Source: a virus
Strand: one strand, 5' to 3'
UHGV virus genome: UHGV-0139471
DNA: 21,066 nucleotides
Positions 4,565 to 20,876 of the stretch are shown here, one piece after another. The first letter of the stretch is position 1. Every line of letters begins with the position of its first letter. The position numbers were made by a program, and so were the translations under genes. Under the pieces are notes generated by a model. The model had not been told where the DNA came from and ran no database searches. It saw only the letters and a program-made list of their open reading frames with translations.

Positions 4565-4583
4565 TCTAAGCTAATCTCCCTTC

Positions 4584-4645: not shown

Positions 4646-4749
4646 TTCATCTATCAACAGCGAAGAGGCAGGACGCCCACGAAGTAGCCGCCCGGGGCAT
4701 ATGAAGTCCGGGATGATTCGCTGACAGATAAACCAAATAGGAACAGATC

Positions 4750-4983
4750 ATGGCAAGCAAAGGCATTGAAAACCTTATCAAGGACGCATTAGCAAACGGC
4801 TGTCATGTAGTCCGTAAAGCGCATCGCTTCGAGGTAAGCAAGAAAGGCCAAAAATCAATCACTCTTATTATTTGTGAAGATGGCACAGCTTACCGGGGAG
4901 ATATTGACCTAACGATCGCCATAGCCATTCGCACTCAAAAAGAAATGCGCAGCATCCTCGGCCTGCCGGCCAAGGCAAGTTAA
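4750..4983 (+). CDS. hypothetical protein (77 aa); weak HicA-toxin-like resemblance
   Basis: AGGAAC Shine-Dalgarno 7 nt upstream; occupies the first position of the pL-side operon. Segment NGCHVVRKAHRFEV and C-terminal RSILGLP loosely resemble HicA (G-W-x-x-R-x-x-GSH ... ILKQAGL), but the GSH motif is not conserved. Confidence 0.5.
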   Translation: MASKGIENLIKDALANGCHVVRKAHRFEVSKKGQKSITLIICEDGTAYRGDIDLTIAIAIRTQKEMRSILGLPAKAS

Positions 4984-6100
4984 TTACCACAGGTATCTTC
5001 GGGAGGGGTTGCGAAGCTGGATTGACCACCAGCAACAGAAACTCACCCGACATACAGCAGCCGTTTAACCCACGGCGTCGGGGGTCCAGTAGACCTGGAT
5101 TAATACTGTAGGGGTTGTGCCGGTTGGTCGCCGGCGCCCCGCCCGAAGATACCTGAACGAACATGGCGAAGCCGACAGCGTTGAAGGCGATTTTCTCGGT
5201 TTGCGCGCTAAACAATAGCGGGGGTGAAATCGGGGCGGAGAAGCAGAATCCGCGATGTCGGGACTTGATACTTCCGGCCATACCAACAAGCCGAATGATC
5301 GCGTAACGATCCTTTGCATCTGCCCCGGCGAGGTGGCGCCGCCGGACCGGGGTAGATGAATCGTACACAACATGAAAGCGCATTCCATCTTCATCCGTCG
5401 TGGGGACTGGTTTGTAACTGAAGGAGTGCGCTTCCAGTTGTGAACGGCAATATTCACGACCGTTGTATGGCACATGCAGCGTTAGCAGCCCGGATGGTTC
5501 CCTTGAAGTTCCATGCGCTATCCGGACAACTGGAATGTGCAAGCTAAGTGTTTCAGGCACGACGTGCGCCCCACCAGCGCGGCGAAAAGGTGTGACGCCC
5601 GGGAAGAGTCCGGGACACAACGATGAGGGCATTGACGAGCAAGGCACAGAGTCTGGTTCGATTCCAGACGCCAGGATAGTTCTATATCTGGTGATGGGCA
5701 GGGAAAAGGTCCGTTCGATTCGGACACCGGCAGTGCTCTCTTCGTTGTGGTAATTGCGGCTATGCGCACGTGACGAGCCAAACCCGTTCAATGAATGCGT
5801 TTCCGGGCAGTGTACGTCGCCGGTTATGGCTTAACCCGGCAGGTGGAGGCACCACCGCCACAACCTAGTTAACTGTGCTGTGTGTAGTCTTGGCGGTTAT
5901 CCAGTTTTCCACTATCCAAAGGAGGAAGAGGATAACGTTCTGATGGATAACCGCCCTTTTTACACAATACACAAGAGCATCACCGGGCGACGGGCTCATA
6001 ACCCAATCCACCCGGGCGGCGTCCTAACCGCAGGTGCTCTTCTGTGTTGTGTACGGAGAAATTCCCGGCGGTGGCAGCCGCCTTTCGAGAGGGTAAAACC

Positions 6101-6472
6101 ATGAGTAATGATCGCATGACAGTCGTGCCCGATTTCCTGGGCGAACTGGACGCCGGCGTATTCATGAACAAGATTGCGGCGGCTCTGAATACCACCGCGC
6201 TCGGCGTTCTGAACAACGGCAACAAAGGCAAAGTAGTCCTGACCTTTGATTTTGAGCGTATGGGCAACTCTGTTGAAGAGAAGCGCGTCAAGATTAAGCA
6301 CAAGCTGAACTACAGCACCCCAACTCCCCGCGGCAAAGCGTCGGAAGAGGACACCACCGAAACACCAATGTGGGTCAATAAAGGCGGCAAGCTCACCATC
6401 CTGCAGGAGGATCAAGGGCAACTCTTCGGTATCACCGGCACGGTGGACGGAAAGCTTAAAGCGGCTCAGTGA
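6101..6472 (+). CDS. hypothetical prophage protein (YfdP-like by size and position)
   Basis: ATG at 6101 with GAGAGGG Shine-Dalgarno; 123 aa; first gene of a rightward operon whose next two genes match the YfdQ/YfdR pattern of E. coli CPS-53. Confidence 0.65.
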   Translation: MSNDRMTVVPDFLGELDAGVFMNKIAAALNTTALGVLNNGNKGKVVLTFDFERMGNSVEEKRVKIKHKLNYSTPTPRGKASEEDTTETPMWVNKGGKLTILQEDQGQLFGITGTVDGKLKAAQ

Positions 6473-6528
6473 TCCGCACGCACAAATTCACTGATACCAC
6501 TTCGCTAATCAGTTAATAAGGAATTTTT

Positions 6529-7356
6529 ATGTCTCAGTTAGACAGCGGTACTTTTCAGCAGGTTAAAGACCTGGTGCTTTCCGGTTATCACCTGAACGAT
6601 ATCCACGGTCTGGCCTGCCCGACCGCCCTGTTACCACAAAATACAAGCGTTGAAAGCCTGGAGCGTTTTTCTTATGAGCGCTTCCGTTTCCGTGGAGCCA
6701 TGGACACAACCAGTATTGATGATTTCGTTCGCTATTCTGTTGGTTATGCCCAGGAAGAAGAAAAAGCCCGCTGCTTTATCGATGCGAACAACATGCTGGC
6801 CCGTTCTATCTTCAATATCGGCACGCTGGATAACCCAGGTCATGCTGACAACGTCGCCTCGATCAAGCTAAAAAAGACAGCGCCCTTCCGCGCGTTACTG
6901 GCGATCAACGGCGATCACCTTAATCAGAAGCAAATCGCCGAATGGCTCGAAGACTGGAGCGACTATCTCACTGCGTTCGATGCTGACGGACAGACAATGA
7001 AAATTGCACAGGCAGCGCAGGCGGTTCGCCGTGTCACTATCCAGCAAACTAATGCCGCCGATCATGAAGACGGTGATTTCAGCGGCAAAAAATCACTGAT
7101 GCAAAGTATCGAAGCCAGCAGTAAAGATGTTATGCCGGTCGCTTTTGAATTTATGTGTGTACCGTATGAGGGCTTGGGCGAGCGTCGTTTCAGTCTGCGC
7201 AACAGTCTGCTGAAAAGTAGCGACCCGGTTTTCGTTCTGCGTATTGTCCAACTGGAGGCCCAGGAAGAAGCGATCGCCAATGAGTTCCGCGATCTGCTGG
7301 TTGGCAAGTTCGACGGCAAGCCGGTAGAAACCTTTATCGGCAACTTCAAAGCCTGA
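6529..7356 (+). CDS. DUF2303-type prophage protein (YfdQ-like)
   Basis: 275 aa, AAGGAA Shine-Dalgarno; size and neighbourhood (followed by an HD-domain gene) match YfdQ of CPS-53 from memory. Confidence 0.7.
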   Translation: MSQLDSGTFQQVKDLVLSGYHLNDIHGLACPTALLPQNTSVESLERFSYERFRFRGAMDTTSIDDFVRYSVGYAQEEEKARCFIDANNMLARSIFNIGTLDNPGHADNVASIKLKKTAPFRALLAINGDHLNQKQIAEWLEDWSDYLTAFDADGQTMKIAQAAQAVRRVTIQQTNAADHEDGDFSGKKSLMQSIEASSKDVMPVAFEFMCVPYEGLGERRFSLRNSLLKSSDPVFVLRIVQLEAQEEAIANEFRDLLVGKFDGKPVETFIGNFKA

Positions 7357-7368
7357 TTGCTCTCCATT

Positions 7369-7392
7369 AAATCCCCGTCGTTGCGGGGATTT
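7369..7392 (+). terminator. perfect 9-bp hairpin (aaatccccg / cggggattt), possible partial terminator or attenuator
   Basis: Inverted repeat with 6-nt loop immediately after the stop of the YfdQ-like gene; the downstream tract is only weakly U-rich. Confidence 0.3.
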
Positions 7393-7488
7393 ATTAAAGC
7401 GTAATCCTGCAATTAATCGCCACCTGGCGAGGGATTCCTACACACAAAAATCAGCGCTGTGCAGAGCGCAATTAAATGGAGAAATACG

Positions 7489-8016
7489 ATGAGCTTTATT
7501 CAAACCTTCACAGGCAAGCACTTTAACTATCTGGATATCCAGCTGGATGCCATTGAGATCGAAGATATCGCTAACGCGCTCTCGAATATTTGCCGCTTTG
7601 CTGGCCATCTTCCGGAGTTCTACAGCGTTGGTCAGCACAGCGTGTTAACCAGCCACCTGGTACCACAGGAGTTTGCGCTTGAAGCACTTCTGCACGATGC
7701 CGCAGAGGCTTATTTGCAGGATATTCCAGCACCGCTTAAACGCCTGCTCCCGGACTACCGCGCCATTGAGGATCGGGTTGATGCTGCAATACGTCAGAAA
7801 TTCGGCCTACCTGCTGAGCAGCACCCGACCGTTAAATATGCCGACCTGGTGATGTTGGCCAGCGAACGTCGTGACTTTGAGATCGACGACGGTACTGTCT
7901 GGCCCATGCTCGAAGGCATTATTCCAACGGATCAATTCGTTATTAATCCGGTTCGCCCAGGTCAGGCCTATGGGATGTTCATGAACCGATTCCACCAGCT
8001 GATGGAGCGGCGCTAA
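7489..8016 (+). CDS. HD-domain phosphohydrolase (YfdR-like 5'-deoxynucleotidase family)
   Basis: ATG at 7489 with GGAGA Shine-Dalgarno (track ORF starts at an upstream GTG); His ... HD motif context (SVGQHSVL ... LLHDAAEAY) typical of HD phosphohydrolases; 175 aa. Confidence 0.75.
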   Translation: MSFIQTFTGKHFNYLDIQLDAIEIEDIANALSNICRFAGHLPEFYSVGQHSVLTSHLVPQEFALEALLHDAAEAYLQDIPAPLKRLLPDYRAIEDRVDAAIRQKFGLPAEQHPTVKYADLVMLASERRDFEIDDGTVWPMLEGIIPTDQFVINPVRPGQAYGMFMNRFHQLMERR

Positions 8017-8216
8017 TGCCACATATGAAAGTTAAAGAACTGGTCGCTGCAGCTTACGCTGCGGCACCAGATCTACCACCGGAAGCGGCAGAGTTAATGC
8101 GCAATATTGCTTCACGACTGGATGTAACGTTCATCGCCCTTACCGAAGCAATGGACCAAAACACAGCGCAGGCTGCCGTGTTGGCAGTCCTGAATGGGGT
8201 TAAAAACAATGGCTAA
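8016..8216 (+). CDS. hypothetical protein (66 aa)
   Basis: ATG overlaps the stop of the HD gene (TAATG); Ala-rich helical-looking peptide. Confidence 0.45.
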   Translation: MPHMKVKELVAAAYAAAPDLPPEAAELMRNIASRLDVTFIALTEAMDQNTAQAAVLAVLNGVKNNG

Positions 8217-8994
8217 AAACTCGATCGACGTGTACGGCGCCAGCGGCAAAACCAACGCCCTGTCGTTCGAACCGGAAAAGCTGCATTTAGTCACCGATCA
8301 GACCCACCCTCTCTACGATGAGCGGGTCCACCTGCCGATCGACGAAGGGATGGTTCTGAACATCAAGGAGCTGGGTGTACTGGAGCCGATTATCGTCTGG
8401 AAAGACCCTGAAACAGGGCTCACCTGCGTGGTTGTAGGCCGTCAGCGCGTTAAACATACCCTGGAGGCAAATAAACTCCTTCTGAAAGAAGGCAAAGACC
8501 CACTGCTTGTTCCTGGGGTCGTTAAGCGCGGCTCAGCAAATCAGATGGCTAAATACATGGTCAGCGAAAATGAAATTCGCCGACCTGATACACCGCTCGG
8601 CCGGGCTAAAAAAATGTCAGACGCGCTCGACCGCGGTCTCGATGAGGACGATATTGCGGTGTTATTTGGCTGCAGCGTTCAGACCGTTCGTGCAACGCTG
8701 TCCCTTCTCGATGCCACCCAGGCCGTCCGGGAAGCGGTGGAGTCTGGCACTGTTACCGTTACCCAGGCACGTCAGCTTGGCACGCTTCCCCCGGAAGAGC
8801 AGCGGGAAAAAGTGAAAGAGATTGAATCTGCGACCGCTGGGACTACCGGCCATGAAAAAGCCAGGCGTCAGCGCGCCGTGCTTGGCGAAACTAAGTCACG
8901 TCTCAAATCACGCAAAGAAATCACAAAAGCCCTTGAAGCTGCCAGTGGTGAATATGCTGATGCACTGCGCTGGGTGCTCGGGGAGGTTGTATGA
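8194..8994 (+). CDS. ParB-like nuclease-domain protein
   Basis: 266 aa; N-terminal LEPIIVWKDPETGLTCVVVGRQRVKHTLEA resembles the ParB/Sulfiredoxin arginine-rich box; an alternative ATG at 8209 has a better-placed GGGG Shine-Dalgarno. Confidence 0.55.
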   Translation: MGLKTMAKNSIDVYGASGKTNALSFEPEKLHLVTDQTHPLYDERVHLPIDEGMVLNIKELGVLEPIIVWKDPETGLTCVVVGRQRVKHTLEANKLLLKEGKDPLLVPGVVKRGSANQMAKYMVSENEIRRPDTPLGRAKKMSDALDRGLDEDDIAVLFGCSVQTVRATLSLLDATQAVREAVESGTVTVTQARQLGTLPPEEQREKVKEIESATAGTTGHEKARRQRAVLGETKSRLKSRKEITKALEAASGEYADALRWVLGEVV

Positions 8995-9560
8995 ACATCT
9001 CAACAGTAAACGAGCTCATTCAGTCGCTGGAGAGTGCGGGCGAGCTGTCAATCAAAGAGCGTAAGTATCTGGAGTTGGCGAAAGCTTATCAGCAGCTGGC
9101 TGCGGAGAATGTGGCGCTGGCAGCAGAAAACAAAATGGCTGTTGATGCGGTAACGGTTTTCTCAAACGTCACCCACGATATCACCGACATCATCTGTGAT
9201 GAACTTGGGCATGACCGTGTGGCTGAAATTGTCGCGGCCTATAACGACCTCGGCAACATGCCCGCCACTGATCGCATCGTAGCCGGGATTAAGGCCAGAG
9301 TCATTCCTGAAGGCTTTAAGCTGGTACCTGAGCAGATGTATCTGTCAGACGAAGATATTCAGGCAATCTGCAGGCAGTGTGGCAATGGCGATAAAAAAGG
9401 CTATGGCGATTACGAAGATGGCATTCTGTGGGTTGGTGAACTGAGCAATGACGGCGAGATGAAATACGGCCTGAATATTGCGAATGCTAATTACCCTGAA
9501 GAGGGTTCAATCACTGTGTTTGAGTTTGATGAACCGCTGCGCGAGGGGGCCGACAAATGA
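8991..9560 (+). CDS. hypothetical protein (189 aa)
   Basis: ATGA overlap with the upstream gene; no family recognised. Confidence 0.6.
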   Translation: MNISTVNELIQSLESAGELSIKERKYLELAKAYQQLAAENVALAAENKMAVDAVTVFSNVTHDITDIICDELGHDRVAEIVAAYNDLGNMPATDRIVAGIKARVIPEGFKLVPEQMYLSDEDIQAICRQCGNGDKKGYGDYEDGILWVGELSNDGEMKYGLNIANANYPEEGSITVFEFDEPLREGADK

Positions 9561-10048
9561 GCAGCGGAATCGAACTTATGCAGCATGCTCTGGGTGTCAA
9601 TGAGCGCAATAGAACGCCGTACCGAAATTATTTCCTCGCCGGAGATGGTCATACGGACAACGAGGAGTGGGAAAAACTGGTTTCTGATGGTTTCGCTACC
9701 TCCCGGCCAGCGCCTGACTTTGCGGTTAGCGGAACGCTCTATCACGTCACAAATAAAGGCGAAGAATTAGCTATTGCTGCGCTACCTGAACCGAAGAAAA
9801 AGACGCGATACGAAGAATACCTCGACGCTGATAGTTGCCTGTCATTCGGTGAATGGCTGTTGGGTTACCAGCTTCCTGAGGTCGAATATGACCGTCATGG
9901 AAAATGCAGAATGTTCCGGTGCCAATACGATGAATCTTATGGCTACCCGCGTCGTGATATTCAGGGCGAGTGGTGCCCGACAAAGAAAGCAGCCAAAGCC
10001 AGCTACAAAGAAGCGCTGCGCAAGTCTAAACAGGAGCGTGCAGCATGA
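9557..10048 (+). CDS. hypothetical protein (163 aa)
   Basis: ATGA overlap with the upstream gene; no family recognised. Confidence 0.6.
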   Translation: MSSGIELMQHALGVNERNRTPYRNYFLAGDGHTDNEEWEKLVSDGFATSRPAPDFAVSGTLYHVTNKGEELAIAALPEPKKKTRYEEYLDADSCLSFGEWLLGYQLPEVEYDRHGKCRMFRCQYDESYGYPRRDIQGEWCPTKKAAKASYKEALRKSKQERAA

Positions 10049-10353
10049 CAACTGATATCACCGAACTGGCGCAAAGAGAGAAATTCGAAGCGTGGTGGGA
10101 GCGCGAGTATAAACATCTCGAATCCTCGAAATATACCGATGCTGTGCCGCATATCAAATACGGCTTCTGGATGGCATATCAGGCCGGTGGTGCTGAGCTG
10201 GTAGAGGCGCTGGAGAAGGCGCAGCGTGCCAATAACTCAGCACCAGCCATATTGCGCCAGCTTGCCGAAGAGAAACAGAAACGCGGAGAGGTGGCGGCAG
10301 CGACCGCCTTCAACTACGCAGCGTCAGCACTGCAAAAGGAGCTGTCGAAATGA
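10045..10353 (+). CDS. hypothetical protein (102 aa)
   Basis: ATGA overlap with the upstream gene; no family recognised. Confidence 0.55.
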   Translation: MTTDITELAQREKFEAWWEREYKHLESSKYTDAVPHIKYGFWMAYQAGGAELVEALEKAQRANNSAPAILRQLAEEKQKRGEVAAATAFNYAASALQKELSK

Positions 10354-10580
10354 CCAGACCAACTACTGCGCAACTAAACGCTGCCTATGACCAATTTAAT
10401 TTTTGGTACGACAAAGCCAAAAAGTTGGATGAAGAATTAGCGAAAGCAGAAGAGCGCATCGCCGAGCTGGAGTCCCGCACCGTGAAGCTGCCGCAAGCTG
10501 TTAGCGCAGGCGGTCAGGGTTATCAGGAACAAGTCGAGCGGATACTAACTGCCGCTGGCATCAAGTGGGAGGTTGAGTGA
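10350..10580 (+). CDS. hypothetical protein (76 aa, coiled-coil-like)
   Basis: ATGA overlap with the upstream gene. Confidence 0.5.
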   Translation: MTRPTTAQLNAAYDQFNFWYDKAKKLDEELAKAEERIAELESRTVKLPQAVSAGGQGYQEQVERILTAAGIKWEVE

Positions 10581-10876
10581 TGGCGACCAAAGCGCAATTG
10601 CAAGGCCAATGCACGCGGTTGGAAAACGAAAACCGGGAACTTAGTCGCCTTTTGGCAAGGGCTGAGCGTGAGCTTAACAACAGACTGCTGGATGAAGAGT
10701 TACCGCCCGAGGAAATCCCGTACCGCGTTACCTGCTTAATGAAGTATCACAGCATGCCGTGGGAAGTGTTCTGGTGTTCTGAGCACAAGCGATGGATGGA
10801 TGAGATGGATAGTAGTTTTCCGTACTCAATGAGCGATAACACTTGCCCTGTATGCCGAGATGAGGAGGGCCAATGA
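10577..10876 (+). CDS. hypothetical protein with putative zinc-ribbon (99 aa)
   Basis: Overlapping start; Cys/His pairs (CSEH ... CPVC) suggest a small zinc-binding element. Confidence 0.55.
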
Positions 10877-11304
10877 CCAGCAAATTAACCAGAGAGCCAA
10901 TCACTCACGAATTGAAAATTTACCCTGAATTCTTCTCTGCTGTTTGTACTGGCGTTAAACGCGCAGAGCTACGCAAAAATGACCGTGATTATCGGGTAGG
11001 CGACACTCTCCACCTGCTGGAGACACCGCGCGGTAGCTGTAACCCGACAGGTGAATACATCAATGTGATAATCACCCATATCGCTGACGTTGGTGAATGG
11101 ATGACGGGTTATGTCCTGCTGAGTGTTAAGCGGGAAACGGTGGGCAGCGAGCCGATAGTGATGGACGGACTCGTTAAAGCCGTAGAGTTCTATGAGCAGG
11201 TTAAACGCGAAAATCCGCCAGTCGAAACAGGCGCATGGAAAGATGCTGTTGATTGGGTGCTGAAGGAAGCCTGCCGCGCCGCCATGCTCCAGTTGAGAGG
11301 ATGA
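10873..11304 (+). CDS. DUF3850-like (ASCH/PUA-fold) protein
   Basis: 143 aa; N-terminal [33 protein letters not shown] matches the DUF3850 signature as I recall it (K-x-F-E-I-R-K-N-D-R-D-Y-x-V-G-D). Confidence 0.55.
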
Positions 11305-11308
11305 AGAG

Positions 11309-11512
11309 ATGACTATCAGGCGTAAAAGTGGACTTAAGACTGTTTTATTTTTCTTTATTTTGTTGGTTTTAGTGATTCCAGTTTCACCAATACTTCTTAT
11401 TTGTTTTATAGGTCAAAAGGCTGATATTTTTCTAGGATTGTACGATAGTATGCTTCTTAGCCAAATCAGTCGCCTACATGACAAGATAAATCCTTATGAG
11501 GCGCGTGACTGA
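11309..11512 (+). CDS. small membrane protein (67 aa)
   Basis: GAGAGGA Shine-Dalgarno; one long hydrophobic segment (VLFFFILLVLVIPVSPILLICFI); first gene of an A+T-rich module. Confidence 0.45.
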   Translation: MTIRRKSGLKTVLFFFILLVLVIPVSPILLICFIGQKADIFLGLYDSMLLSQISRLHDKINPYEARD

Positions 11513-11655
11513 TGAAAACCGTAAAAGAAAATCCAGACGCCACTAATTATCGTGGTTTTTGGCGTGTAACCGTGTGGGCTTGTTTATTCTGTGTAATATT
11601 TTTCTGGTTGCCCGCTATTTCAGTAACCATTTATTACTTTTCCTCGGGGAGTTAA
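11512..11655 (+). CDS. very small membrane protein (47 aa)
   Basis: Below the track cutoff. ATG overlaps the upstream stop (TGATG) and its TAA overlaps the next ATG (TAATG); translation MKTVKENPDATNYRGFWRVTVWACLFCVIFFWLPAISVTIYYFSSGS has one hydrophobic helix. The competing frame is the 11559 TTG-start track ORF. Confidence 0.3.
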   Translation: MKTVKENPDATNYRGFWRVTVWACLFCVIFFWLPAISVTIYYFSSGS

Positions 11656-11912
11656 TGCGCCGTTACATCATTACCGATAAAGACATTATCGATGCTTTCC
11701 AGAGATGGTCTAGCCCTGAATTAAAAAACCAGAAAATGCATACCAGCTTCATACGTGAAGCTGTATGCCGCGCACATCCTGACAAGGTGATTCTTCAGTA
11801 TGACGTTCGCCAAAAGCTAAAGAATATGGCCTCGCGTGGTTTAGTTACTGAGGTGCGTTTAAGTCCTAACGCAACAGCCTGGATGATAATAAAAGGTGAT
11901 TCAAATGGATAA
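11655..11912 (+). CDS. hypothetical protein (85 aa)
   Basis: ATG at 11655 preceded by GGGGAG; the track ORF starts further upstream at a TTG. Confidence 0.45.
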   Translation: MRRYIITDKDIIDAFQRWSSPELKNQKMHTSFIREAVCRAHPDKVILQYDVRQKLKNMASRGLVTEVRLSPNATAWMIIKGDSNG

Positions 11913-12276
11913 AATTAAGACCAAAAGAAGCGAGCGCCGTTTGTCGCGTGACCTGATAGAGGAAGGGTTAAGGCTGGTGGCAGAACGTAGCGAGCGGGAA
12001 GGAGTGAACAAAGATACCGCTAAACGTCATGCTTCAGCCATCAGAGGAGTGATTCCGGCGCTGGGTGTAGTAAAGAGTAAGGTTGTGAAGCCGGGGGTTT
12101 GGGTTTCGCTTTATACCCGCAGCGATGCTACATCGACCGTCATCAGCAATATGAAGTTTACCGCCGTCATATTTGAGTGGGCCGGACAGCAGGAGTATGA
12201 AGATTCGGCATTTTACGCCGCTATCGCTTGTGCTATCAGAACTGCACTGTCTGTGCGTGGTGAAGTGAGGGGTTAG
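11905..12276 (+). CDS. hypothetical protein (123 aa)
   Basis: ATG at 11905 with AAGGTGA Shine-Dalgarno; overlaps the upstream stop by 8 nt. Confidence 0.5.
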   Translation: MDKIKTKRSERRLSRDLIEEGLRLVAERSEREGVNKDTAKRHASAIRGVIPALGVVKSKVVKPGVWVSLYTRSDATSTVISNMKFTAVIFEWAGQQEYEDSAFYAAIACAIRTALSVRGEVRG

Positions 12277-12277
12277 A

Positions 12278-12445
12278 ATGAACTTGGTTTTCTCTCTCAT
12301 TTTTTTAACGGGCTGCATACTGCTTGGCAGTATTTCTGTTTTTTTGTGGGGTGATGGTCGCAGGAAACTTAGCGTTGCATTTGCACTATTGGTTTTGATG
12401 TATGCATTTGCAGCCTGTATAAATTTATTTTCGGGGAGGTTGTGA
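12278..12445 (+). CDS. very small membrane protein (55 aa, two hydrophobic segments)
   Basis: Below the track cutoff. ATG 2 nt after the upstream stop, GAGGGG upstream; MNLVFSLIFLTGCILLGSISVFLWGDGRRKLSVAFALLVLMYAFAACINLFSGRL; TGA overlaps the recombinase ATG (TGATG). Confidence 0.35.
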   Translation: MNLVFSLIFLTGCILLGSISVFLWGDGRRKLSVAFALLVLMYAFAACINLFSGRL

Positions 12446-13323
12446 TGTTAAGCGATCTTCTTATCATGGTTGACCGCCGTGCTCAGGCGGTCAGTTTGCG
12501 CGAAAAAACAATTATTAACGAACGTCACGCCGTCCGTATGCTGGAGCCTGTTTTATCTCTTGGGGTACGCGCTGCGAGCGTACCTGATACATGGGTAAGA
12601 TACGCCGACCGTTGCATTGATAATGGGCTGGCGGCGTCTACGGTTCGCCAGCGCATCGATTGCGTTGCGGCGGTTGTAGCCTGGGTAATTCATGCTGATA
12701 TTAAATTCAAACCAGCCGCGCCGGGCTCTCTGAGCAGGATGCTTGATGCCATGCGTACAGCGGCAAGAGCTATAGGCAAGCGGATAAAGCGTCACAGGGC
12801 ATTGAGCAGGCCAGCCCGTGTAAGTGTTGACGAGTATTCTACGGTAGTGCGGGATATTGAGTCTTTACGGGATCCATACAGGGCCGCAGCCCGTATGATG
12901 CTGTGTTTTGGAATGAGGGCAACAGAAACGCTTTCACTGTCTCCATCATCAATTCTTTCAGGTGGGAAGTTGTTTGTTCCTGACCGGGAGACTAAAAATC
13001 ACTCCGATTTGCTTTTACCTTTGCCAATTAAATACATTCCTTTAATCGAGGAGTGGCTAAGCGTGATAGGTGAGTCAGAAATAAAGTACAACACGCTTGT
13101 AACGACGATTTCCCGCGCCGGGATTAAATGGCGCTGCCATGATTTAAGAAAATTATTCAGAACTTCCGCCGCCGTGCGTGGTGAGGATTATCTTGCAACA
13201 GAATTGATATTAAATCACGCAGTGAAGGACGTTCCGAGCGTTTACTTACAATCTCCACCGTTTGCGGCAATGAGGCGAGTTTTAAACAATTCGATTGAAG
13301 AATATTTACAGGTTAAAGGGTAG
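12445..13323 (+). CDS. divergent tyrosine recombinase (integrase/invertase family)
   Basis: About 292 aa; GGGGAGG Shine-Dalgarno 5 nt upstream of ATG 12445; catalytic-residue pattern readable: Arg (GMRATETL), H-x-x-R (CHDLRKLF), downstream His and Tyr (ILNH ... SVYLQ). Short for a phage integrase; no obvious arm-binding N-domain. Confidence 0.65.
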   Translation: MLSDLLIMVDRRAQAVSLREKTIINERHAVRMLEPVLSLGVRAASVPDTWVRYADRCIDNGLAASTVRQRIDCVAAVVAWVIHADIKFKPAAPGSLSRMLDAMRTAARAIGKRIKRHRALSRPARVSVDEYSTVVRDIESLRDPYRAAARMMLCFGMRATETLSLSPSSILSGGKLFVPDRETKNHSDLLLPLPIKYIPLIEEWLSVIGESEIKYNTLVTTISRAGIKWRCHDLRKLFRTSAAVRGEDYLATELILNHAVKDVPSVYLQSPPFAAMRRVLNNSIEEYLQVKG

Positions 13324-13326
13324 GGA

Positions 13327-13584
13327 ATGGAAAAATCAGCGATTAAAGATAATGATATTATGTATCAAAAGAAGTATCCGAGAGATTGTTTGTTTAAATT
13401 GCTTCAACTACGCACTAATTTAAAAGCGAAGCCAGATATTTACCGGATAGAAATGATTAACCGCAGCGGTGATAAGATTTTGATGGGAGGGCGGCAAACA
13501 ACACAGGAGGCGATTTCTCTTTATCAGGATATTGCGACACTTAGCCCGTCAGAAGTGGAGGCGGCATTCAGTAGCATGGTCTAA
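13327..13584 (+). CDS. hypothetical protein (85 aa)
   Basis: Immediately follows the recombinase; followed by a strong terminator. Confidence 0.5.
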   Translation: MEKSAIKDNDIMYQKKYPRDCLFKLLQLRTNLKAKPDIYRIEMINRSGDKILMGGRQTTQEAISLYQDIATLSPSEVEAAFSSMV

Positions 13585-13603
13585 GAGCAGACCACAAAAA
13601 CGA

Positions 13604-13628
13604 GCCCGGCATCTGCCGGGTTTTTTTA
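13604..13628 (+). terminator. rho-independent terminator
   Basis: GC stem cccgg / ccggg (13605-13620) followed by TTTTTTT (13621-13627). Confidence 0.65.
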
Positions 13629-14662
13629 TGCCTGAACATTGCATCACAAATAATGTAAGTAAAAAGTTAAATATCGATTAACACAAAAGCAACATAATAC
13701 ACGTTAAATCATGTGACGGGATTGTTAAATGTATGTTGTGTGGATAATTTTATAAGCATCATGAAATGATGGTTAAGTAAATGATTGAAGTCTCGTTTTA
13801 TGCAAAATAACCAAAAATAAATTTAACCTATAAAATTCAGTGAATTATGTAATTTTGATTGTTTTTCATTCAAAAGTGACTCGATTTTTGGCGTCAATAC
13901 CTTGCATTTTTGCGCTGAGGAAAAATAAAAATAATTAAGTGAAATATTCATTAATTTAATCAATAGGTTATAGTTGTGAGGCAAACGGATGTATAAGGTT
14001 TGACATTCAGTGTCAGCACGAGTAAAAGACCAAAAAGAGGGCAATTAAAGCCATTTTATTTAAAAATGTTTCCACTTGAAATAAAGCCGGACATTTACCA
14101 CCTTACCTATAGCTATACGAATCAATAAGCTATGTTATTTTTCGTGGTGTTTACTGTTTTATTCGCCGGAAATGTTTCTGTAATCTCATCTGACCAGTGC
14201 GTTTAGCATCTTGACATGAGTTTGTTATGAGTTAGCAGAAAGGGGGAAAGCATAAGCATGTGGGGTGGCGGAAAAGATAAAATCGCGCTCAGGCTTGTTT
14301 CCACCAGCGATTGCAGGAATCTATCACTTTTCACTGATGTTTGATAACGGTTAAATATTTGACCGTTCAATTATGTTTGCTCTGTTACATATTCATTGCG
14401 TTAAAAATGAGCATAACAAAAGCAACAAATATCAAACATTCATGTTGGCACGTTAAATGTTATCCATATTGAAAGTGAGTAGTGATGCGTGGTTGGGGCG
14501 ATATTGACCACTAACTTAAATCGTGCAGGTGGGTAGTTTCATGCTGCTTATCCACAGATTTAGCCTTGTGCGTAATATTGACACGTATTACCGCTGGAGC
14601 CGTTTCTGTAATTAGTCAGGCCATTGCCTTTAAATCACCTCTATATAAAGGAGGTGAACTTC

Positions 14663-15616
14663 ATGGCTTACGGGCGTCAGTTCGAAATAACCGTTAACTG
14701 CACAGATGGAGAGACGATCCACATTACTGATGTGGACGTTGATTTCTCGTCTGTTCGCGACGATGAGAAAGAGCCAAACGAGGCCGATTTAACGTTGTGG
14801 GGTTTAACACCACAGACTCAGAACGCCATCGCTCAGGCAGGGTCAACCGTCAGTGTTGCCGCTGGCTATATAGATGAAGGGATGTTCACCCTGTTTCAGG
14901 GCGAACTTATCAGTGCCGTGACCATCAAGCCTAATGAGGTATACGGCCTGAAAATGAAAATCTACGAAGCGCTGATTCCGTTCCGGGCCAGCGTAACATC
15001 GCGCACGTTTCGCAAAGGTCAGAGCCTTAAAGATGCTGTTTTACAGGTAGCGTCCGATATGGGGATGGGTTGTCAGTTCTCTAAATCAGCTTCCTCTCTC
15101 ACCCTGGCTAAAAGCGTCAGCGCTGCGGCATTGTCCCGCGATGTGCTTACCAGCCTCTGCAAGCCAGTTAATGCCAACTGGTCGCTTCAGTATCAGTCAA
15201 TCATTGTCACTGCCGGTGATTCAATTCTTACCGGTGCCGCTGTTTTCTCCCCTAAAACAGGCTTGCTTGGTGCGCCGCTTCTGAAAATTCACTCCCCGAA
15301 ACGCACGAAGAAAAAGAACCCTTCCGAAAAAGAGCAGATCCAGAAGAAGCACGACAAAAGCATAACTACCTATGTCTGGCCCCCTAAGGGCTCGCAGGTT
15401 GACTACTCAAAAGGTGCTCGCCGCCAGATGGGGGTTATTGAGGCTGTTACATGGGAATCGTTGCTTTATGGCGGGGTTGAGATTGGCGAACAGGTAGAGC
15501 TTTCTTCTCCATCAATGGGCGAAGGCTGGATGGTTATTGTGAAGAAGATTTCCCATCGCTTTAGTACCCGCGACCGTCAGGCGTGGTCATCGTCATGGGA
15601 GGGCATCATTGCATGA
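14663..15616 (+). CDS. phage structural protein, first gene of baseplate-like operon (possible hub component)
   Basis: ATG at 14663 with strong AGGAGGT Shine-Dalgarno (track ORF starts at an upstream TTG); 317 aa; stop overlaps the spike gene ATG. Hub assignment rests on position only. Confidence 0.55.
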   Translation: MAYGRQFEITVNCTDGETIHITDVDVDFSSVRDDEKEPNEADLTLWGLTPQTQNAIAQAGSTVSVAAGYIDEGMFTLFQGELISAVTIKPNEVYGLKMKIYEALIPFRASVTSRTFRKGQSLKDAVLQVASDMGMGCQFSKSASSLTLAKSVSAAALSRDVLTSLCKPVNANWSLQYQSIIVTAGDSILTGAAVFSPKTGLLGAPLLKIHSPKRTKKKNPSEKEQIQKKHDKSITTYVWPPKGSQVDYSKGARRQMGVIEAVTWESLLYGGVEIGEQVELSSPSMGEGWMVIVKKISHRFSTRDRQAWSSSWEGIIA

Positions 15617-16323
15617 GAGCCGGTAGCCAGATTCAGGCCATTGTTGAGCAGGCGCTTAATTCAGCGCTTTTTTCGCTTGAGGCAACGATTGTTTCCGTCA
15701 GCGGCGGGCGGGCAACTGTCCAGCCATCCCCAAAACGCATATTCGGTGACAACTCGGAGCCGATTGCTTATCCGGCTGTTGAAAACGTTCGTTTAGTTTC
15801 GCTCGTCTGGGATAGCGGTAAGTCAGGCGTTAGCGGGCGAGTTTCTCCGGGGGATGAATGTCTCCTTATCGCACTTTCTCACGGAGACGGCGACGAGCCA
15901 GACCATAAGACCATTTCAAACGCTATCGCTATATGTGGATTTTCAGACGTTGCCAGCCACCAGATGCCGGATGAGGCAGGATTAAGAGTGTTCAGCGGTA
16001 GCGCCTTTATTGAATGGGATGACGGAAGCATTAAGGGCGATACCGGGCAAGGCGCAACTTTCGAGTTTACGGGCAACAAAATGACCGTTAACGCGCCGGG
16101 CGGTATCGATATGACAGCGCCAATGACAACCATAAACGGGAATTTGACGATTTCAGGATCCATCAGTCAGGGCGCAGAAGGTGGCGGCAATGCTGACTTT
16201 GGCGGCAACGTCACCATAACCGGCGATAGCAAAGCCGCTGACCACATCAGCGGCGGTAAGTCCTTCAATTCTCACACGCATAAAGAAAACGGTGAGGGCG
16301 GTCAGACCGACGCCCCGACATAA
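15613..16323 (+). CDS. baseplate spike protein (gpV / Mu gp45-like)
   Basis: ATG 15613 in ATGA overlap with the upstream stop; N-terminal OB-fold-like segment with GRVSPGDECLLIALSHGDGDEP (P-x-GD-x-V-L-V-x-F-x-GD pattern of V-type spikes); Gly-rich beta-helix-like C-terminus ending in an H-x-H apex motif (NSHTHKENGEGG). Confidence 0.65.
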   Translation: MRAGSQIQAIVEQALNSALFSLEATIVSVSGGRATVQPSPKRIFGDNSEPIAYPAVENVRLVSLVWDSGKSGVSGRVSPGDECLLIALSHGDGDEPDHKTISNAIAICGFSDVASHQMPDEAGLRVFSGSAFIEWDDGSIKGDTGQGATFEFTGNKMTVNAPGGIDMTAPMTTINGNLTISGSISQGAEGGGNADFGGNVTITGDSKAADHISGGKSFNSHTHKENGEGGQTDAPT

Positions 16324-16332
16324 GGAAAAACC

Positions 16333-16710
16333 ATGAAATTAAATGACCATGCGGCACAAATCGCACTTTCTAACGGTGGCTTTCTGATGGCGGGTGACTA
16401 CAGCACAACCGTTAGCAAAGGCGAGATTATCAACATCACTGAGCGAACCGGGCTTGTAGTTGAGCGTGTCGAGTGCATCACCCTGATTAACGCGCCGTTG
16501 TATATGGTCATGGCGACGTGCAGGGAGAACAAAGACCAGTACATGCCATTTTACAGCGATTTGCCGTTTGAATTACCGCATCAAGCGGCGATGGCGCAAA
16601 TGTTAAATGATGCAGGCGAAGGCTTTGACCTTGATGACCTGCTGGATATTGAGTCGCTGGATTCTGCTGTGACGGTCGTCCACGTTGAAAAATGGATGCA
16701 CACCGAATGA
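16333..16710 (+). CDS. hypothetical protein (125 aa) within baseplate operon
   Basis: AAGGAAA Shine-Dalgarno; acidic C-terminus; no family recognised. Confidence 0.55.
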   Translation: MKLNDHAAQIALSNGGFLMAGDYSTTVSKGEIINITERTGLVVERVECITLINAPLYMVMATCRENKDQYMPFYSDLPFELPHQAAMAQMLNDAGEGFDLDDLLDIESLDSAVTVVHVEKWMHTE

Positions 16711-16925
16711 ACATCACAACAACTCAGTATCGACAGGGTTTAAAGGGCTGTTTCATTTCCGCAGAGAGGCCGCAGGCTGGCGACTCTCTGACGCTGGTAA
16801 TGCCAACATGCAGAGGGCGGCGCATTATCCCTGTTGGCGAGGTTCAGCGGGTCGAGGCTGTAGGTACTAGCCGTTGCCTCGTATGGGTTTCAAAGCTGGC
16901 ATTCGTTGAGGGGATGAATTACTGA
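16707..16925 (+). CDS. hypothetical small Cys-containing protein (72 aa)
   Basis: ATG at 16707 in ATGA overlap with the upstream stop (track shows a longer form from 16692); its stop overlaps the next ATG. Confidence 0.45.
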   Translation: MNITTTQYRQGLKGCFISAERPQAGDSLTLVMPTCRGRRIIPVGEVQRVEAVGTSRCLVWVSKLAFVEGMNY

Positions 16926-17272
16926 TGCTGGACATTATGCAGGATGAAAGCGGAGTCATTCTCCAAAATGGCGATTTGGTGTTGGATGGTGGCATTGATG
17001 GCATTGCACAGCAGGCAGAAATCCGCGTAGGTACTAATCGCGGCGAGTGGTGGCTTGATGAAACTCAGGGGTTGCCGTGGTTGCCTGGCATTATGGCGTC
17101 ACGTCTGCCGGTTTCGATTGTATCGAACATGATTAACGCAGAGGCTCGGCGAACTTCTGGTGTGACTGATGCAAGAACCACAACCATCAATGATGTTAAG
17201 GGGGATTACACGATCCGCTTTGCGGTTTATGTCGGTGCCGATAGTACGGAGGTAACGAGTGGAATTAATTAA
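16925..17272 (+). CDS. baseplate wedge protein (gp25/GpW-like or related small baseplate protein)
   Basis: 115 aa; segment RVGTNRGEWWLDETQGLPWLPG fits the T-x-x-GE ... P-x-x-G pattern of gp25-type proteins; lies directly before the large wedge-like gene. Confidence 0.5.
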   Translation: MLDIMQDESGVILQNGDLVLDGGIDGIAQQAEIRVGTNRGEWWLDETQGLPWLPGIMASRLPVSIVSNMINAEARRTSGVTDARTTTINDVKGDYTIRFAVYVGADSTEVTSGIN

Positions 17273-18668
17273 TGATGGCGGCTGGCACGGTGCCAGACTG
17301 CCAGAGCTGCGCGGCGACATTTACCAGAAATTGCGCGACCTTCTAGGGAATATAAGCCCGGACGGTGATTCCCTGATTGGTCAGGTTATGGCGGTTGTCG
17401 CTGAAAATGACCTGAATATAGTGGAGGCCATCGGCTGGACGTTTGCTGGTTTCTTCATTTCATCAGGTGAAGGCATCCAGCTTGACGGTATAGGCGAGGG
17501 GTTCACGCTTCCTCGCTATGGCTTAACCCGTTCATCTGCCGATGTGGTTTACCTGCTGGCTTCAGGGCAGGTAATCGCGTCTGGTGAGACTTTCACTATC
17601 TCCGGTATTTCTGGTGACTGGTCGCCGTCAGGCAGTATTCAGGCCAACGGTAAAAGTGCTACCGGGTTTGTGCTGGAGATTAAGTCTGATGCTATCACCA
17701 CGGGAAATACCTTCACCATATCCATCAACGGTAAGCCATATTCAACGCAGTACCAGACAGGCGATACGTCTGATTCGATTTTATCCAGGCTGTATCCCAT
17801 CATTGCCGCCGCTGATACGTCAGTAACCACATACTCAACAGAATACGGGTTATTGCTTTATGCAGCGGATGGTAAATCGCTCATCCAGTTTTCATTTTCT
17901 GATGATGTTTTTTCCATCGTCCGTACTGGAATGCCCGCAACAACATGGTATGACAGCGATACTGAGTTTCCTGATGTTCGATTCGGCTATGTGGCAACAG
18001 ATGACATTCTGATTCTAGCCAACGGTAGTAAAGGCTTTGAAATAGAAGATGACGAGCAATACAGAGAGCGTCTTTTCGAAGCAGCGGAGGCAGGGAGAAA
18101 GAATGTCAGCGCATCAAGACCGGGCATAAAAAACGCCGTTCTAGCTGTTGCTGGCGTGAGTTACGTCACTGTTAACACCAACAGAGGCATTGAGACAGAT
18201 GCTGATGGTCTGCCGGGGAAATCAGTTCAGGTGTTTGTTGCTGGGGGGGATAGCGATGCTATAGCGCAGGCCATATATGACGCGGCAGCGGCTGAGTGCG
18301 GTTTCTACGGCAACACATCGGGTACAGCAACTGACGGTACAACTACCGAAACAGTGTATTTCACTCGCCAGAGCTTCCAGCTTGTCTATGTTTCCGTTTC
18401 CGGTGATACATGGGATGCAGAGACAACAGGCAAGCCAGACGATTACGAGAGCGTAGCTAAAAGCGTTATCACTGGCTATTTCTCACAGCTTGAAATGGGG
18501 CGTGACGTTTTCGCAGGTCAAATATCTGCCCGTTTGGTTACGGCTTTTCCGACGATGACGGATGTAACAGTAACGGTAGGTACTTCTGAATCACCAACCG
18601 GAAAAACCGTTCCCATAAGTAGCGGTGTTGTCGCAGTTACAGATTCTACTTCTGTGGTGGTGTCGTAA
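17259..18668 (+). CDS. large baseplate wedge protein (J-like by position)
   Basis: 469 aa; GTG start with GGAGG at 6 nt spacing; synteny (after the W-like gene, before an I-like-sized gene); no motif confirmed by eye. Confidence 0.5.
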   Translation: MELINDGGWHGARLPELRGDIYQKLRDLLGNISPDGDSLIGQVMAVVAENDLNIVEAIGWTFAGFFISSGEGIQLDGIGEGFTLPRYGLTRSSADVVYLLASGQVIASGETFTISGISGDWSPSGSIQANGKSATGFVLEIKSDAITTGNTFTISINGKPYSTQYQTGDTSDSILSRLYPIIAAADTSVTTYSTEYGLLLYAADGKSLIQFSFSDDVFSIVRTGMPATTWYDSDTEFPDVRFGYVATDDILILANGSKGFEIEDDEQYRERLFEAAEAGRKNVSASRPGIKNAVLAVAGVSYVTVNTNRGIETDADGLPGKSVQVFVAGGDSDAIAQAIYDAAAAECGFYGNTSGTATDGTTTETVYFTRQSFQLVYVSVSGDTWDAETTGKPDDYESVAKSVITGYFSQLEMGRDVFAGQISARLVTAFPTMTDVTVTVGTSESPTGKTVPISSGVVAVTDSTSVVVS

Positions 18669-19423
18669 TGGAACCATCAATTAAAAAACCGGGTCAACTG
18701 GCAACTGAACGACTTACCTCAAAGGTCAGATTACAGAAAAATATCGACCTCGTTTCCGGTATCAAGGCCAACCAGCAGGGCATGGTTGATGCACTGGACT
18801 ATCTGAAAAAGGGTTTCTCAATTACTGATTCTTCGGGTCTTTTACTTGATGCATGGGGGGAGAGGTTCGCTATACCGCGAGAGGGCCGCGACGATGATAG
18901 TTACAGGATAGCTCTCTTGCAGGGTGCAGGGACGCAATCTGTTTCGCTTCAGTCACGCCGCGCTGTCGGTGGATTCATCCAGTTAGCCTACGGAATTGCA
19001 TGGCTGCGACTGAACAGGGTAGGGCTGACCACTGGCGCGGTGGGTGCGGCTTTCAACCGCGTACCGTTACGTGCTGTTTTCGTCCATTGTGGCGCGATGG
19101 CTCCAGATATCGAACTGCCGGAAACGCTGGTTGCGGCAACTTTTGCCGGGGATATATACAGCGCTGCAATACCTCCTAACGTCAAACTAACCCACCTCGC
19201 GCCAATGTTCCCCGGTAATGCGTTTCCGGCTGTGTGGGGTGGTATCAAGTACGAGAAGACGCAAAAAACCGTGATGGCTACAGCAACCAAAGGGATCCGT
19301 GTCACGGCGACAAAGTCACTTTTGACCCGGATAGCAGCTACACAAACCATTAATGAAAATGAGCTTGTGGAGCCATTCAACACGCTTGTAACAGTCAAAA
19401 AGATGAAGGTGACAAATGGATAG
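18668..19423 (+). CDS. baseplate/tail protein (gpI-like by position)
   Basis: 251 aa; TAATG overlap with the upstream gene; assignment by synteny only. Confidence 0.45.
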   Translation: MEPSIKKPGQLATERLTSKVRLQKNIDLVSGIKANQQGMVDALDYLKKGFSITDSSGLLLDAWGERFAIPREGRDDDSYRIALLQGAGTQSVSLQSRRAVGGFIQLAYGIAWLRLNRVGLTTGAVGAAFNRVPLRAVFVHCGAMAPDIELPETLVAATFAGDIYSAAIPPNVKLTHLAPMFPGNAFPAVWGGIKYEKTQKTVMATATKGIRVTATKSLLTRIAATQTINENELVEPFNTLVTVKKMKVTNG

Positions 19424-19649
19424 CTGGGCCAATACTGACAAAACTTACGCTGGTCAAGGTGGTGCTGATATTCCAAACAAGCAAGAGCCATCAGAGGAAA
19501 TGCAGGCTACCGGGTTCGCGCCGACCTACTTTGATGTAAATGGCAATCTGGTGTTTGGGGATGGGATAAGCGCTCAGGTAATGAATTACATCCTCAACGA
19601 CCTGTACAAAAAATATCAGGAGCTTTTAGCCAGGGTAGAAACACCATGA
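19416..19649 (+). CDS. small tail-associated protein, paralog A (77 aa)
   Basis: Shares GFAPTY ... G-x-L-x-x-GD ... N-x-I-x-NDLY with the next gene; overlaps the upstream stop. Confidence 0.5.
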   Translation: MDSWANTDKTYAGQGGADIPNKQEPSEEMQATGFAPTYFDVNGNLVFGDGISAQVMNYILNDLYKKYQELLARVETP

Positions 19650-19882
19650 ATACATTTTCGACCGTTGCTCGTAATTATCCTGTAAGTGGCGGAATTTATC
19701 CGAGCAAGAAACAACCATCGGCAGCGAAACAGGCCGATGGCTTTGCGCCAACTTACATTAATGCAGGCGGAAAATTGATTGAAGGGGATCCGGTTGACGT
19801 GGCGGAGCTTAACTTCATTTTTAACGACCTGTACGCGCAGGCGGCACACATTGACCAGCTTCTTACGGCTAAGGGGAAATAA
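19646..19882 (+). CDS. small tail-associated protein, paralog B (78 aa)
   Basis: ATGA overlap with paralog A; same conserved motifs (DGFAPTY, GD, NDLY). Confidence 0.5.
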   Translation: MNTFSTVARNYPVSGGIYPSKKQPSAAKQADGFAPTYINAGGKLIEGDPVDVAELNFIFNDLYAQAAHIDQLLTAKGK

Positions 19883-20514
19883 TGGCATTAACACCAGATG
19901 AGCTGATTGCGATATCAGACCTTGAGAAAGCACAGATTACAGACTCTGCTGTAGTGCCTGATTGGGTTCTTCCTGCTGAAGTCAGGGGCAGTAGCGCGCC
20001 AATAAACGGTATTCCGTACCCTCAGCACACCATTGACGTGTTTGGCGGGCTTCTCACTGGCGAATGGTCGCTTAAATTTCAGAACCCGTTACAGCGCGTT
20101 GTGTGCGATTTGGAGATATTCCATGGAGAGAATGCGCCAGATTCGACGCCACCAGACTTATCAGCGTTACAATTGACGGCGACCGGCTTTGATAAAGCTG
20201 TGATTTTTTGCCCCGCAAAGACGGTTACAGATGCAGTGCCGGTAAACTTTATGGGGCTGGCTGTTTCCGGCGTTACACCAGTGTACAGGCTGGGAGGAAA
20301 ACGCAGATTTCTGGAGCAGTCTGGAATGGTTGTTATCCCGCTTACCGTGATTCTACTGTCAACACAGCCGCTGACCAGTCAGGAAACAAGCAGGGCATTA
20401 TCCGTCACGCTGAAGCGCAGGAATGAGAATCAGATGACTGTAGCGCCAATTATCAGCGGAATGGTCTACAGTAACCCGCTACCTTCAGCCCGAGATATTG
20501 CGCAGGCGTCGTGA
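19882..20514 (+). CDS. hypothetical tail-associated protein (210 aa), last gene of the coupled operon
   Basis: TAATG overlap with paralog B; no family recognised. Too small for a canonical long tail fibre. Confidence 0.5.
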   Translation: MALTPDELIAISDLEKAQITDSAVVPDWVLPAEVRGSSAPINGIPYPQHTIDVFGGLLTGEWSLKFQNPLQRVVCDLEIFHGENAPDSTPPDLSALQLTATGFDKAVIFCPAKTVTDAVPVNFMGLAVSGVTPVYRLGGKRRFLEQSGMVVIPLTVILLSTQPLTSQETSRALSVTLKRRNENQMTVAPIISGMVYSNPLPSARDIAQAS

Positions 20515-20862: not shown

Positions 20863-20876
20863 GAATTTTAAAATCA

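Follow-up and report, generated by a model that had tools for sequence, protein, structure and literature searches.

A tyrosine recombinase near the end of a tailed prophage inserted in dif, and the integration module to which it probably belongs

The window analysed here is the whole 21,066-nucleotide stretch of virus genome UHGV-0139471, in which a preliminary description, made from the sequence alone, had singled out positions 11309-13584 as an A+T-rich accessory module of small membrane proteins and a divergent tyrosine recombinase. Comparison with related loci leads us to a different picture, in which the four genes at 11655-13584, encoding the proteins p85a, p123, the recombinase and p85b, probably constitute the integration module of a tailed prophage of ~34.5 kb that targets dif, where bacterial chromosome dimers are resolved, with the recombinase as catalyst. 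To our knowledge, dif is a site that nearly every bacterial chromosome must keep intact. The evidence consists of the insertion site, the sequences of both junctions, the linkage of the genes and an intact active site.

A prophage inserted in dif

The left end of the prophage copies found in E. coli, Citrobacter and Klebsiella reads ATTTAACATAA TATACA TT, which corresponds to the XerD arm of dif, its central region and a further 2 bp, where ATTTAACATAA is what we take to be the conserved XerD half-site. The central region is TATAGC in L038, L053 and Buttiauxella and TAACCG in Serratia, and a search for host dif sites with either variant turned up only attL copies. A phage-specific arm that is not a XerC arm comes next, the first gene starts ~40-50 bp further on, and the host DNA on the left differs among genomes. 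This junction, attL, lies 2.8-4 kb upstream of the recombinase gene in 13 loci from E. coli, Citrobacter, Klebsiella spallanzanii, Buttiauxella and Serratia, and the linkage of recombinase and dif persists down to 44-49% protein identity. As regards the right end, 18 sequences were fetched from viral contigs, two of which end at the last gene; in the 16 that could be assessed, ATTTAACATAA TATACA TTATGCGCA is invariably present ~196 bp past the last gene, with unrelated host DNA beyond it.

Both ends are seen together in E. coli CX12, with attL at L001:17253-17280 and attR at L005:21893-21866, ~34.5 kb apart. The same 19 bp recur there after the lysis genes, continuing as ATTTAACATAATATACATTATGCGCACC, and the resulting 28-mer on the attR side is the reverse complement of the E. 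coli and Salmonella dif. The flanking 36 bp of CX12 are single-copy in 1665 E. coli genomes and lie between the ydeQRS fimbrial genes and hipA, which is the native dif locus. The published sequence of E. coli dif is GGTGCGCATAATGTATATTATGTTAAAT (PMC3603311, PMC3025954). The preliminary description had offered an unconventional integration module as one of three readings, and it is the only one of them to find support; both attachment junctions, attL and attR, are present and are derivatives of dif. No tRNA genes were detected in the window or in five loci, so a tRNA target is not supported.

In its native setting (>20 contexts) the module belongs to a myovirus-like, tailed prophage of ~34.5 kb and is separated from the left end of this prophage by 2.3-3.5 kb. 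Gene order was surveyed in L014, L015, L017, L075, E. coli CX12 and CX08, Citrobacter (L002), Serratia (L004) and 35 IMG/VR viral contigs. In L014, L015 and L017, host DNA is followed by a 96-aa gene, Gp111, a 240-aa gene, an 89-aa gene, the ASCH gene and the DUF4014 gene, and then by p47, p85a, p123, the recombinase, p85b, a non-coding gap and the baseplate operon; about 20 further contigs share the L014-type context. Across the family, the early operon comprises the 96-aa gene, Gp111, the 240-aa gene, the 89-aa helix-turn-helix gene, a set of variable genes and the p85a-p123-recombinase-p85b block, with the gap of ~1.1 kb and the baseplate hub, baseplate and fibre genes downstream. Tailspike, Ref and ERF genes are found on the minus strand, and the remainder includes hok, followed by terminase, portal, head, sheath, tube and tape-measure genes, as well as holin, lysozyme and DUF2514 genes. 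In every locus covering that stretch, the baseplate hub stands next to the recombinase. Being a core gene of this prophage lineage and lying a few kb from the prophage attL, the recombinase is not acquired cargo.

The family is confined to Enterobacterales, and was found in only 4 of 100,044 species-representative genomes. In a collection of isolated phages (50,697 records), baseplate J had no match, TerL reached ~34-38% identity at best, and relatives of the recombinase reached at most 29% identity except for short fragments spanning ~20% of the protein; the dif prophage is an unsampled lineage. It carries no recognisable repressor or replication initiator. The CX12 prophage (L001 17253 to L005 21866) contains hok/gef, Ref and a 532-aa ERF protein. 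A 457-aa portal protein at L001 36842-38215 (Phage_portal_3 in sister loci) bears the RefSeq name "anti-CBASS protein Acb1 family protein", a label that is probably an annotation carry-over.

Some features of the DNA around dif can be recorded here. Among E. coli strains, the DNA abutting the XerD arm of dif is variable (L019 5990-6036, L020 5990-6033 and L001 13423-17252), which suggests that other islands insert there too. In CX12, two full-length site-specific integrase genes, one integrase fragment and IS1 copies are found beside dif, with the region to the left of attL disrupted by the IS1 copies, and an ISLad2 element lies a few bp past the XerC arm of the regenerated dif (L005 21790-21866).

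The recombinase and its proposed action at dif

The recombinase gene (12445-13323, plus strand) encodes a protein that is 292 aa long when read from the ATG at 12445 and which we regard as the putative integrase of the dif-inserted prophage. The catalytic pattern reported previously is indeed intact, as R159, K185, H233, R236, H259 and Y268 are invariant among 14 homologues with identities down to 44%. With 27.6 bits, the match to Pfam PF00589 exceeds the cutoff of 27.1. An AlphaFold model (predicted local distance difference test, pLDDT, 86.5) shows the fold of a core-binding plus a catalytic domain, and Foldseek aligned this model over ~290-350 columns, with probability 1.0, to lambda Int (residues 75-356), XerA, IntI, XerH and Cre, with lambda Int, XerA, IntI and XerH about level; the Tn1549 integrase was matched as well. 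The absence of an arm-binding domain, also proposed earlier, is borne out by the model, which begins at the helical core-binding domain and has lambda Int minus residues 1-74 as its closest structure; since the modelled fold aligns to lambda Int residues 75-356, the enzyme is predicted to lack that domain. It thus differs from the complex integrases of the lambda, P2 and SXT types, which carry an arm-binding domain at the N terminus.

Whether genes are real was judged by the ratio of non-synonymous to synonymous polymorphism (pN/pS) against relatives, and their presence or absence was tabulated over 49 loci. By this measure the recombinase is under purifying selection, with pN/pS values of ~0.03-0.33, a range shared with p85a, p123 and p85b. 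A conserved and catalytically intact recombinase is encoded in every prophage copy, and the fully annotated copy of E. coli CX12 has no second recombinase gene from attL to attR.

The junctions suggest how integration could proceed. The phage site, attP, would be made of a P arm, the perfect XerD arm ATTTAACATAA, the TATACA central region, TT and a phage-specific arm replacing the XerC arm. Exchange within the 19 bp common to attP and dif would yield both observed junctions, namely an attL with the host XerD arm, the central region and the phage arm, and an attR with the phage XerD arm, the central region and the host XerC arm, equivalent to a complete dif. With a complete dif at attR, the host would therefore keep dimer resolution. 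We infer that catalysis at dif is performed by the phage recombinase; the arm-less enzyme would catalyse the exchange either alone or on the non-XerC arm beside host XerD on the intact arm. The phage enzyme is the most likely catalyst because it is conserved and catalytically intact, its gene is 3.5 kb away from attL, no other recombinase is encoded in the CX12 prophage, its link to dif holds across deep divergence and attP lacks the XerC arm. In this regard, the window-type phage arm, GCCTTTTGCAA, matches the XerC arm, GGTGCGCATAA, at just 3/11 positions, so host XerC alone is unlikely to suffice. The foreign arm should in addition make attL a poor substrate for the FtsK-driven deletion by XerC and XerD (XerCD), stabilizing the prophage, and should make the action of XerC on attP unlikely.

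The phage-derived XerD arm is perfect in all 17 attR copies and hence is under selection in the phage, which could serve to regenerate dif, to recruit XerD, or both. A more specific version can be advanced only tentatively, and we hold it to be doubtful as a full account: a hybrid machine in which the phage recombinase would occupy the phage arm in place of XerC while host XerD would act on the conserved XerD arm. Such a machine would allow an FtsK-independent, phage-controlled integration and excision at dif, and would be a mirror image of those of the TLC phage (TLC-phi) and the gonococcal island (GGI). The circular junction predicted after excision is ...TTTTGG(C/T)CTGCA-ATTTAACATAATATACATT-GCAAAAGGCCATGATG.... 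The reconstructed window-type attP (L005 21905-21866 plus L001 17253-17290) contains an imperfect inverted repeat, GG(C/T)CTGCAA ... TTGCAAAAGGCC, that brackets the XerD arm and the central region; in the other variants of attP no such repeat is evident.

Several observations weigh against assigning this exchange to the phage recombinase. The link between the enzyme and dif is one of sequence context, and the window itself has no dif-like site, so that the evidence on attachment sites comes from relatives. Two of these relatives, Yersinia L076 and L050, have no dif-like site within 8 kb upstream, and the excised circular attP junction had 0 matches in viral contigs and JGI metagenome contigs. 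Moreover, the sequence of the recombinase is not Xer-like: no match was obtained with the NCBIfam models of XerC and XerD, the only hit being XerA_Arch at E = 0.096 and 12 bits against a cutoff of 220, and a profile search of the PDB retrieved no Xer chain, only the catalytic domains of the HP1 and P2 integrases at E ~1e-3. Such an enzyme would thus either have come to recognise dif by convergence or leave this recognition to XerD. It is also conceivable that the XerD arm is kept perfect solely for the regeneration of dif, in which case it would be uninformative on which enzyme acts. Finally, the phage-side arm varies between recombinase clades, which fits co-evolution with the enzyme but equally neutral drift or weak specificity.

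Of the other explanations, the one that survives best is that the prophage is a tailed but otherwise pure integrative mobile element that exploits Xer (IMEX), integrated and excised by host XerC and XerD, with the recombinase doing other work such as multimer resolution or acting at another site. An attP with a perfect XerD arm and the central region of dif, together with the restoration of dif at one junction, is a hallmark of IMEXs (PMC12715192, PMC5357621). In this line, the phage arms of distant variants look more XerC-like, as is the case for TCTGCTCATAA of Serratia, which matches dif at 8/11 positions. The phage arm of L053, TCTTCGCGCAA, presumably resembles the XerC arm of psi. However, the window-type arm, with its three matches, would be a poor XerC arm, known IMEXs encode no recombinase whereas here a conserved, catalytically intact one is always found near attL, and a phage with a lytic cycle needs an excision under its own control. 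On these grounds we consider a purely host-driven exchange unlikely.

The joined contig, the small genes and the non-coding gap

The window corresponds to an entire metagenome contig (ERZ1743192 NODE_117_length_21066_cov_6.43), a SPAdes node with a coverage of 6.4x, in which two prophages are joined. Positions 1-11123 are 99.84% identical to the lambdoid prophage contig L006, which runs on into nin-like genes, a Q-type antiterminator and holins, whereas 10885-21066 belongs with another prophage, L014, at 99.92% identity. When the bases are compared one by one, the window follows the L006 variants up to 11012 and those of L014 from 10945 on, and the single switch falls in a 69-bp stretch (10945-11013) common to both prophages, inside the ASCH/DUF3850 gene (10873-11304, plus strand; 143 aa; Pfam DUF3850, 1.5e-18). 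The join is seen in one contig only, while >20 contigs have the native context. The position of the recombinase in the middle of the element, as given in the preliminary description, is thus a product of this contig, which unites a lambdoid prophage with an unrelated myovirus-like one.

A short-read mis-join is the likely cause, although a genuine recombinant is possible. If the window were a real recombinant phage, with lambdoid early and myovirus late genes, the recombinase would be stranded in it without an attachment site, as a functionless passenger. The clean single crossover within identical sequence would fit such an origin, given that co-resident prophages can recombine in this way. 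Nevertheless, a single contig at 6.4x is confronted with more than 20 in native context, and mis-joins by short-read assemblers occur at exact repeats of about this length, 69 bp. Moreover, the independent contig L018, 100% identical, begins at window position 10983, inside the stretch where the three sequences agree and ~100 bp into the segment shared by both prophages. A recombinant with a passenger recombinase seems to us improbable. Mis-join or not, the lambdoid mid-element picture does not describe the normal home of the module, and the practical lesson is that an apparent mid-prophage recombinase arose from a contig uniting two prophages at a 69-bp repeat. The lambdoid part also contains a G+C-rich kilobase (4983-6044; G+C 0.55-0.58), where gene finders predict a sole long open reading frame (4868-5791, minus strand, 307 aa), which is of unusual composition and gave no match in Pfam, PHROG or Rfam; an Rfam search of the G+C-rich region found nothing at the gathering threshold, and permissive searches only sub-threshold noise.

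Seven plus-strand open reading frames occupy 11309-13584, packed so that neighbours overlap by 1-8 nt or lie 1-3 nt apart, in accordance with the tight arrangement described initially. Three of them encode the tiny membrane peptides that had been proposed, all hydrophobic and with Kyte-Doolittle maxima over 19 residues of 3.06, 2.19 and 2.37: the DUF4014 protein (11309-11512, 67 aa), p47 (11512-11655, 47 aa) and p55 (12278-12445, 55 aa, with two hydrophobic segments). The other three small proteins, p85a (11655-11912, 85 aa), p123 (11905-12276, 123 aa) and p85b (13327-13584, 85 aa), are soluble and basic according to a hydropathy scan. The sharp fall to A+T-rich composition that had been reported at the start of the module is only partly confirmed: G+C is down to 0.41 at 11200-11800, recovers to 0.45-0.52 over 11.8-13.0 kb and sinks again to 0.30-0.40 over 13.0-14.6 kb, so that the drop is real overall yet patchy. 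The terminator described after the last gene is also present, with a G+C-rich stem of 9 pairs and a T-run at 13602-13630; this intrinsic terminator, which closes the early operon, scores on the minus strand too and is conserved in L001 and L002.

Among the proteins of the module, p123 is the constant partner of the recombinase, since both co-occur wherever upstream sequence is available, even where the identity of the recombinase is only 44-50%. Its 31 homologues include none with a name, and no Pfam, PHROG or NCBIfam family was matched. The AlphaFold model is confident and all-helical (pLDDT 84, five helices), with no significant fold match (best E = 0.6). We view p123 as a candidate accessory or directionality factor, and perhaps p85b too. 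The latter is 57-100% identical where the recombinase is at least 81% identical, is not detected in the 44-64% group, and has a pN/pS of 0.12-0.33; it is conserved in close and moderately related phages. For its part, p85a is conserved in most of the family, with 71-98% identity in close and moderately related loci; in distant loci there is one match of 42% (L050) and it is absent from the remainder. Its pN/pS is 0.03-0.18, and no Pfam, PHROG, NCBIfam or PADLOC family was found for it. Judged by pN/pS, the genes for p85a, p123, the recombinase and p85b are all under purifying selection. A Pfam search at E <= 1 gave no match of any module protein to DUF3653, the family to which we understand the Xer activator XafT to be assigned.

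The ASCH, DUF4014, p47 and p55 genes are instead variable, the last three as small membrane cargo of the same early operon. The DUF4014 gene (Pfam PF13198, 47.7 bits against a cutoff of 23.2, 2e-12; phrog_1832, 6e-16; pN/pS 0.14) is confined to window-type loci and L021. Copies of p47 in close relatives are 74-92% identical and unannotated in RefSeq, with a pN/pS mostly of ~0.4. An orphan whose homologues amount to a single cluster of 4 sequences among 5.8 billion proteins, p55 is confined to window-type loci at 100% identity, as a lineage-specific insertion between p123 and the recombinase; its gene has a GAGGGG Shine-Dalgarno sequence and shares a TGATG stop/start overlap with the recombinase gene. 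These hydrophobic proteins, encoded in an A+T-rich stretch and variable between relatives as phage cargo usually is, are what speaks for acquired accessory cargo in the form of an exclusion or abortive-infection system that would include the recombinase. However, PADLOC gave no convincing match: among the seven module proteins and ASCH, the only hit was Cas2 for p123, at E = 0.007 and 14.7 bits, and none of the eight rose above noise in PADLOC-DB, in keeping with the earlier remark that no nameable defence system matches. Furthermore, the recombinase, p123 and p85a are lineage core genes, its place in mid-element is an artefact that the join in the contig produced, and the dif junctions account for the recombinase. 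The preliminary description had itself set the finding of attL and attR at the true prophage ends against its idea of an accessory module, and this is where they are. A cargo system with the recombinase as a member is accordingly very unlikely; the notion of variable cargo stands for DUF4014, p47 and p55, the only proteins to which an exclusion role can apply.

Between the terminator and the baseplate hub (14663-15616, plus strand; phrog_196, 1e-37), the first gene of the tail/baseplate operon, there is a conserved A+T-rich gap (13631-14662) that separates the integration module from that operon. It contains conserved islands at a G+C of 0.30-0.40, neither gene calling nor annotation places a gene there in the copies examined, the RefSeq record of CX12 among them, and Rfam gave no match at the gathering threshold, only sub-threshold noise. 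Inverted matches to the DnaA box bracket the gap at 13739-13747 (minus), 14460-14468 (plus, one mismatch) and 14548-14556 (plus), and they hold their position in most relatives examined, several of which have a recombinase only 44-53% identical. An origin of replication or a control region of the late operon would be guesses as to its function. In addition, ATATTGAC(A/C) repeats and six copies of GTTAAAT are found in close relatives only; as GTTAAAT is absent from distant relatives, it was dropped as a candidate binding site of the recombinase. An attP within the gap, as in a lambda-like layout, was likewise discarded, given that recombinase, gap and baseplate genes stay contiguous in chromosomal prophages, and the 9-mer AACATAATA at 13691 is not conserved in L001 or L002. 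On the minus strand of 13587-13776, a promoter-like site (13776-13747) faces the terminator and could give rise to an antisense or small RNA of ~140 nt; Rfam returned only noise for this segment, with MicC at 23.7 bits against a cutoff of 90.

That the recombinase might invert or excise 13630-14660 and so switch the tail/baseplate operon is suggested by its vicinity to this conserved 1-kb non-coding region and by a 15-nt inverted repeat (13752-13766 / 14537-14551, 93% complementary) beside the inverted DnaA boxes, but is hardly credible when all 45 BLAST high-scoring segment pairs to 41 related loci are colinear, 13585-14662 has 0 minus-strand alignments in those loci, the inverted repeat is not kept in L002 outside the DnaA box, and the gap holds no dif-like or recombinase-type core site.

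Comparison with known systems

The lambdoid left half of the window suggests a lambda-type integrase, and as in lambda the recombinase is the last large gene of the early operon and is followed by a terminator. Nevertheless, that left half belongs to the other prophage, the recombinase has no arm-binding domain, and attP would lie 3.5 kb upstream of it, at the start of the operon, rather than downstream. A likeness in domain architecture is found with the simple integrases of the mycobacteriophage Brujita type, also encoded by temperate phages and composed of core-binding and catalytic domains only. They are a minority type, with 27 phages carrying a simple recombinase compared with 410 carrying one with an arm-binding domain (Smyshlyaev et al. 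2021, PMC8138268). The present system differs from them in that the target is dif instead of a tRNA or another gene, and in the conserved 123-aa gene upstream. As for XerC and XerD, the similarities are the size (298 versus 292 aa), the two-domain architecture and the DNA site, dif, which the phage recombinase would share judging from its genomic context; on the other hand, the latter is phage-borne, is not a housekeeping enzyme and lacks a match to the XerC or XerD families of NCBIfam.

The elements known to insert in dif include the filamentous phages CTX, VGJ and TLC and the double jelly-roll phages, all of Vibrio, the gonococcal island and EludIMEX and EcloIMEX of Enterobacter; phage-type IMEXs have no integrase and depend on XerCD, and the islands are called Xer-dependent (PMC12715192, PMC5357621, PMC4246890). 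With IMEXs, the dif prophage has in common the exact insertion in dif, an attP that mimics dif, and a pair of junctions of which one is a working dif and the other a crippled copy that stabilises the insert (PMC12715192, PMC5357621), attR being complete in 16/16 viral contigs and in CX12. Unlike them, it is no non-tailed phage or island devoid of a recombinase, but a tailed prophage of ~34.5 kb with a conserved tyrosine recombinase of its own, an enzyme that known IMEXs do not have. In a search limited to open-access papers, so that earlier work may exist, we found no account of a tailed phage that sits in dif and encodes a recombinase of its own, and a prophage of this kind may be new.

If the proposal is true, the hybrid machine would be the first tailed, recombinase-encoding counterpart of IMEXs, and a tailed, lysis-competent prophage with its own recombinase would widen the range of elements and mechanisms known at dif. 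It would also provide genome engineering with a natural enzyme of interest, directed at a site that is conserved throughout Enterobacterales, and dif prophages would help to explain the strain-to-strain variation beside dif in E. coli and its relatives. In both TLC-phi and GGI the degenerate arm is that of XerD, whereas the dif prophage has a perfect XerD arm and a replacement of the XerC arm.

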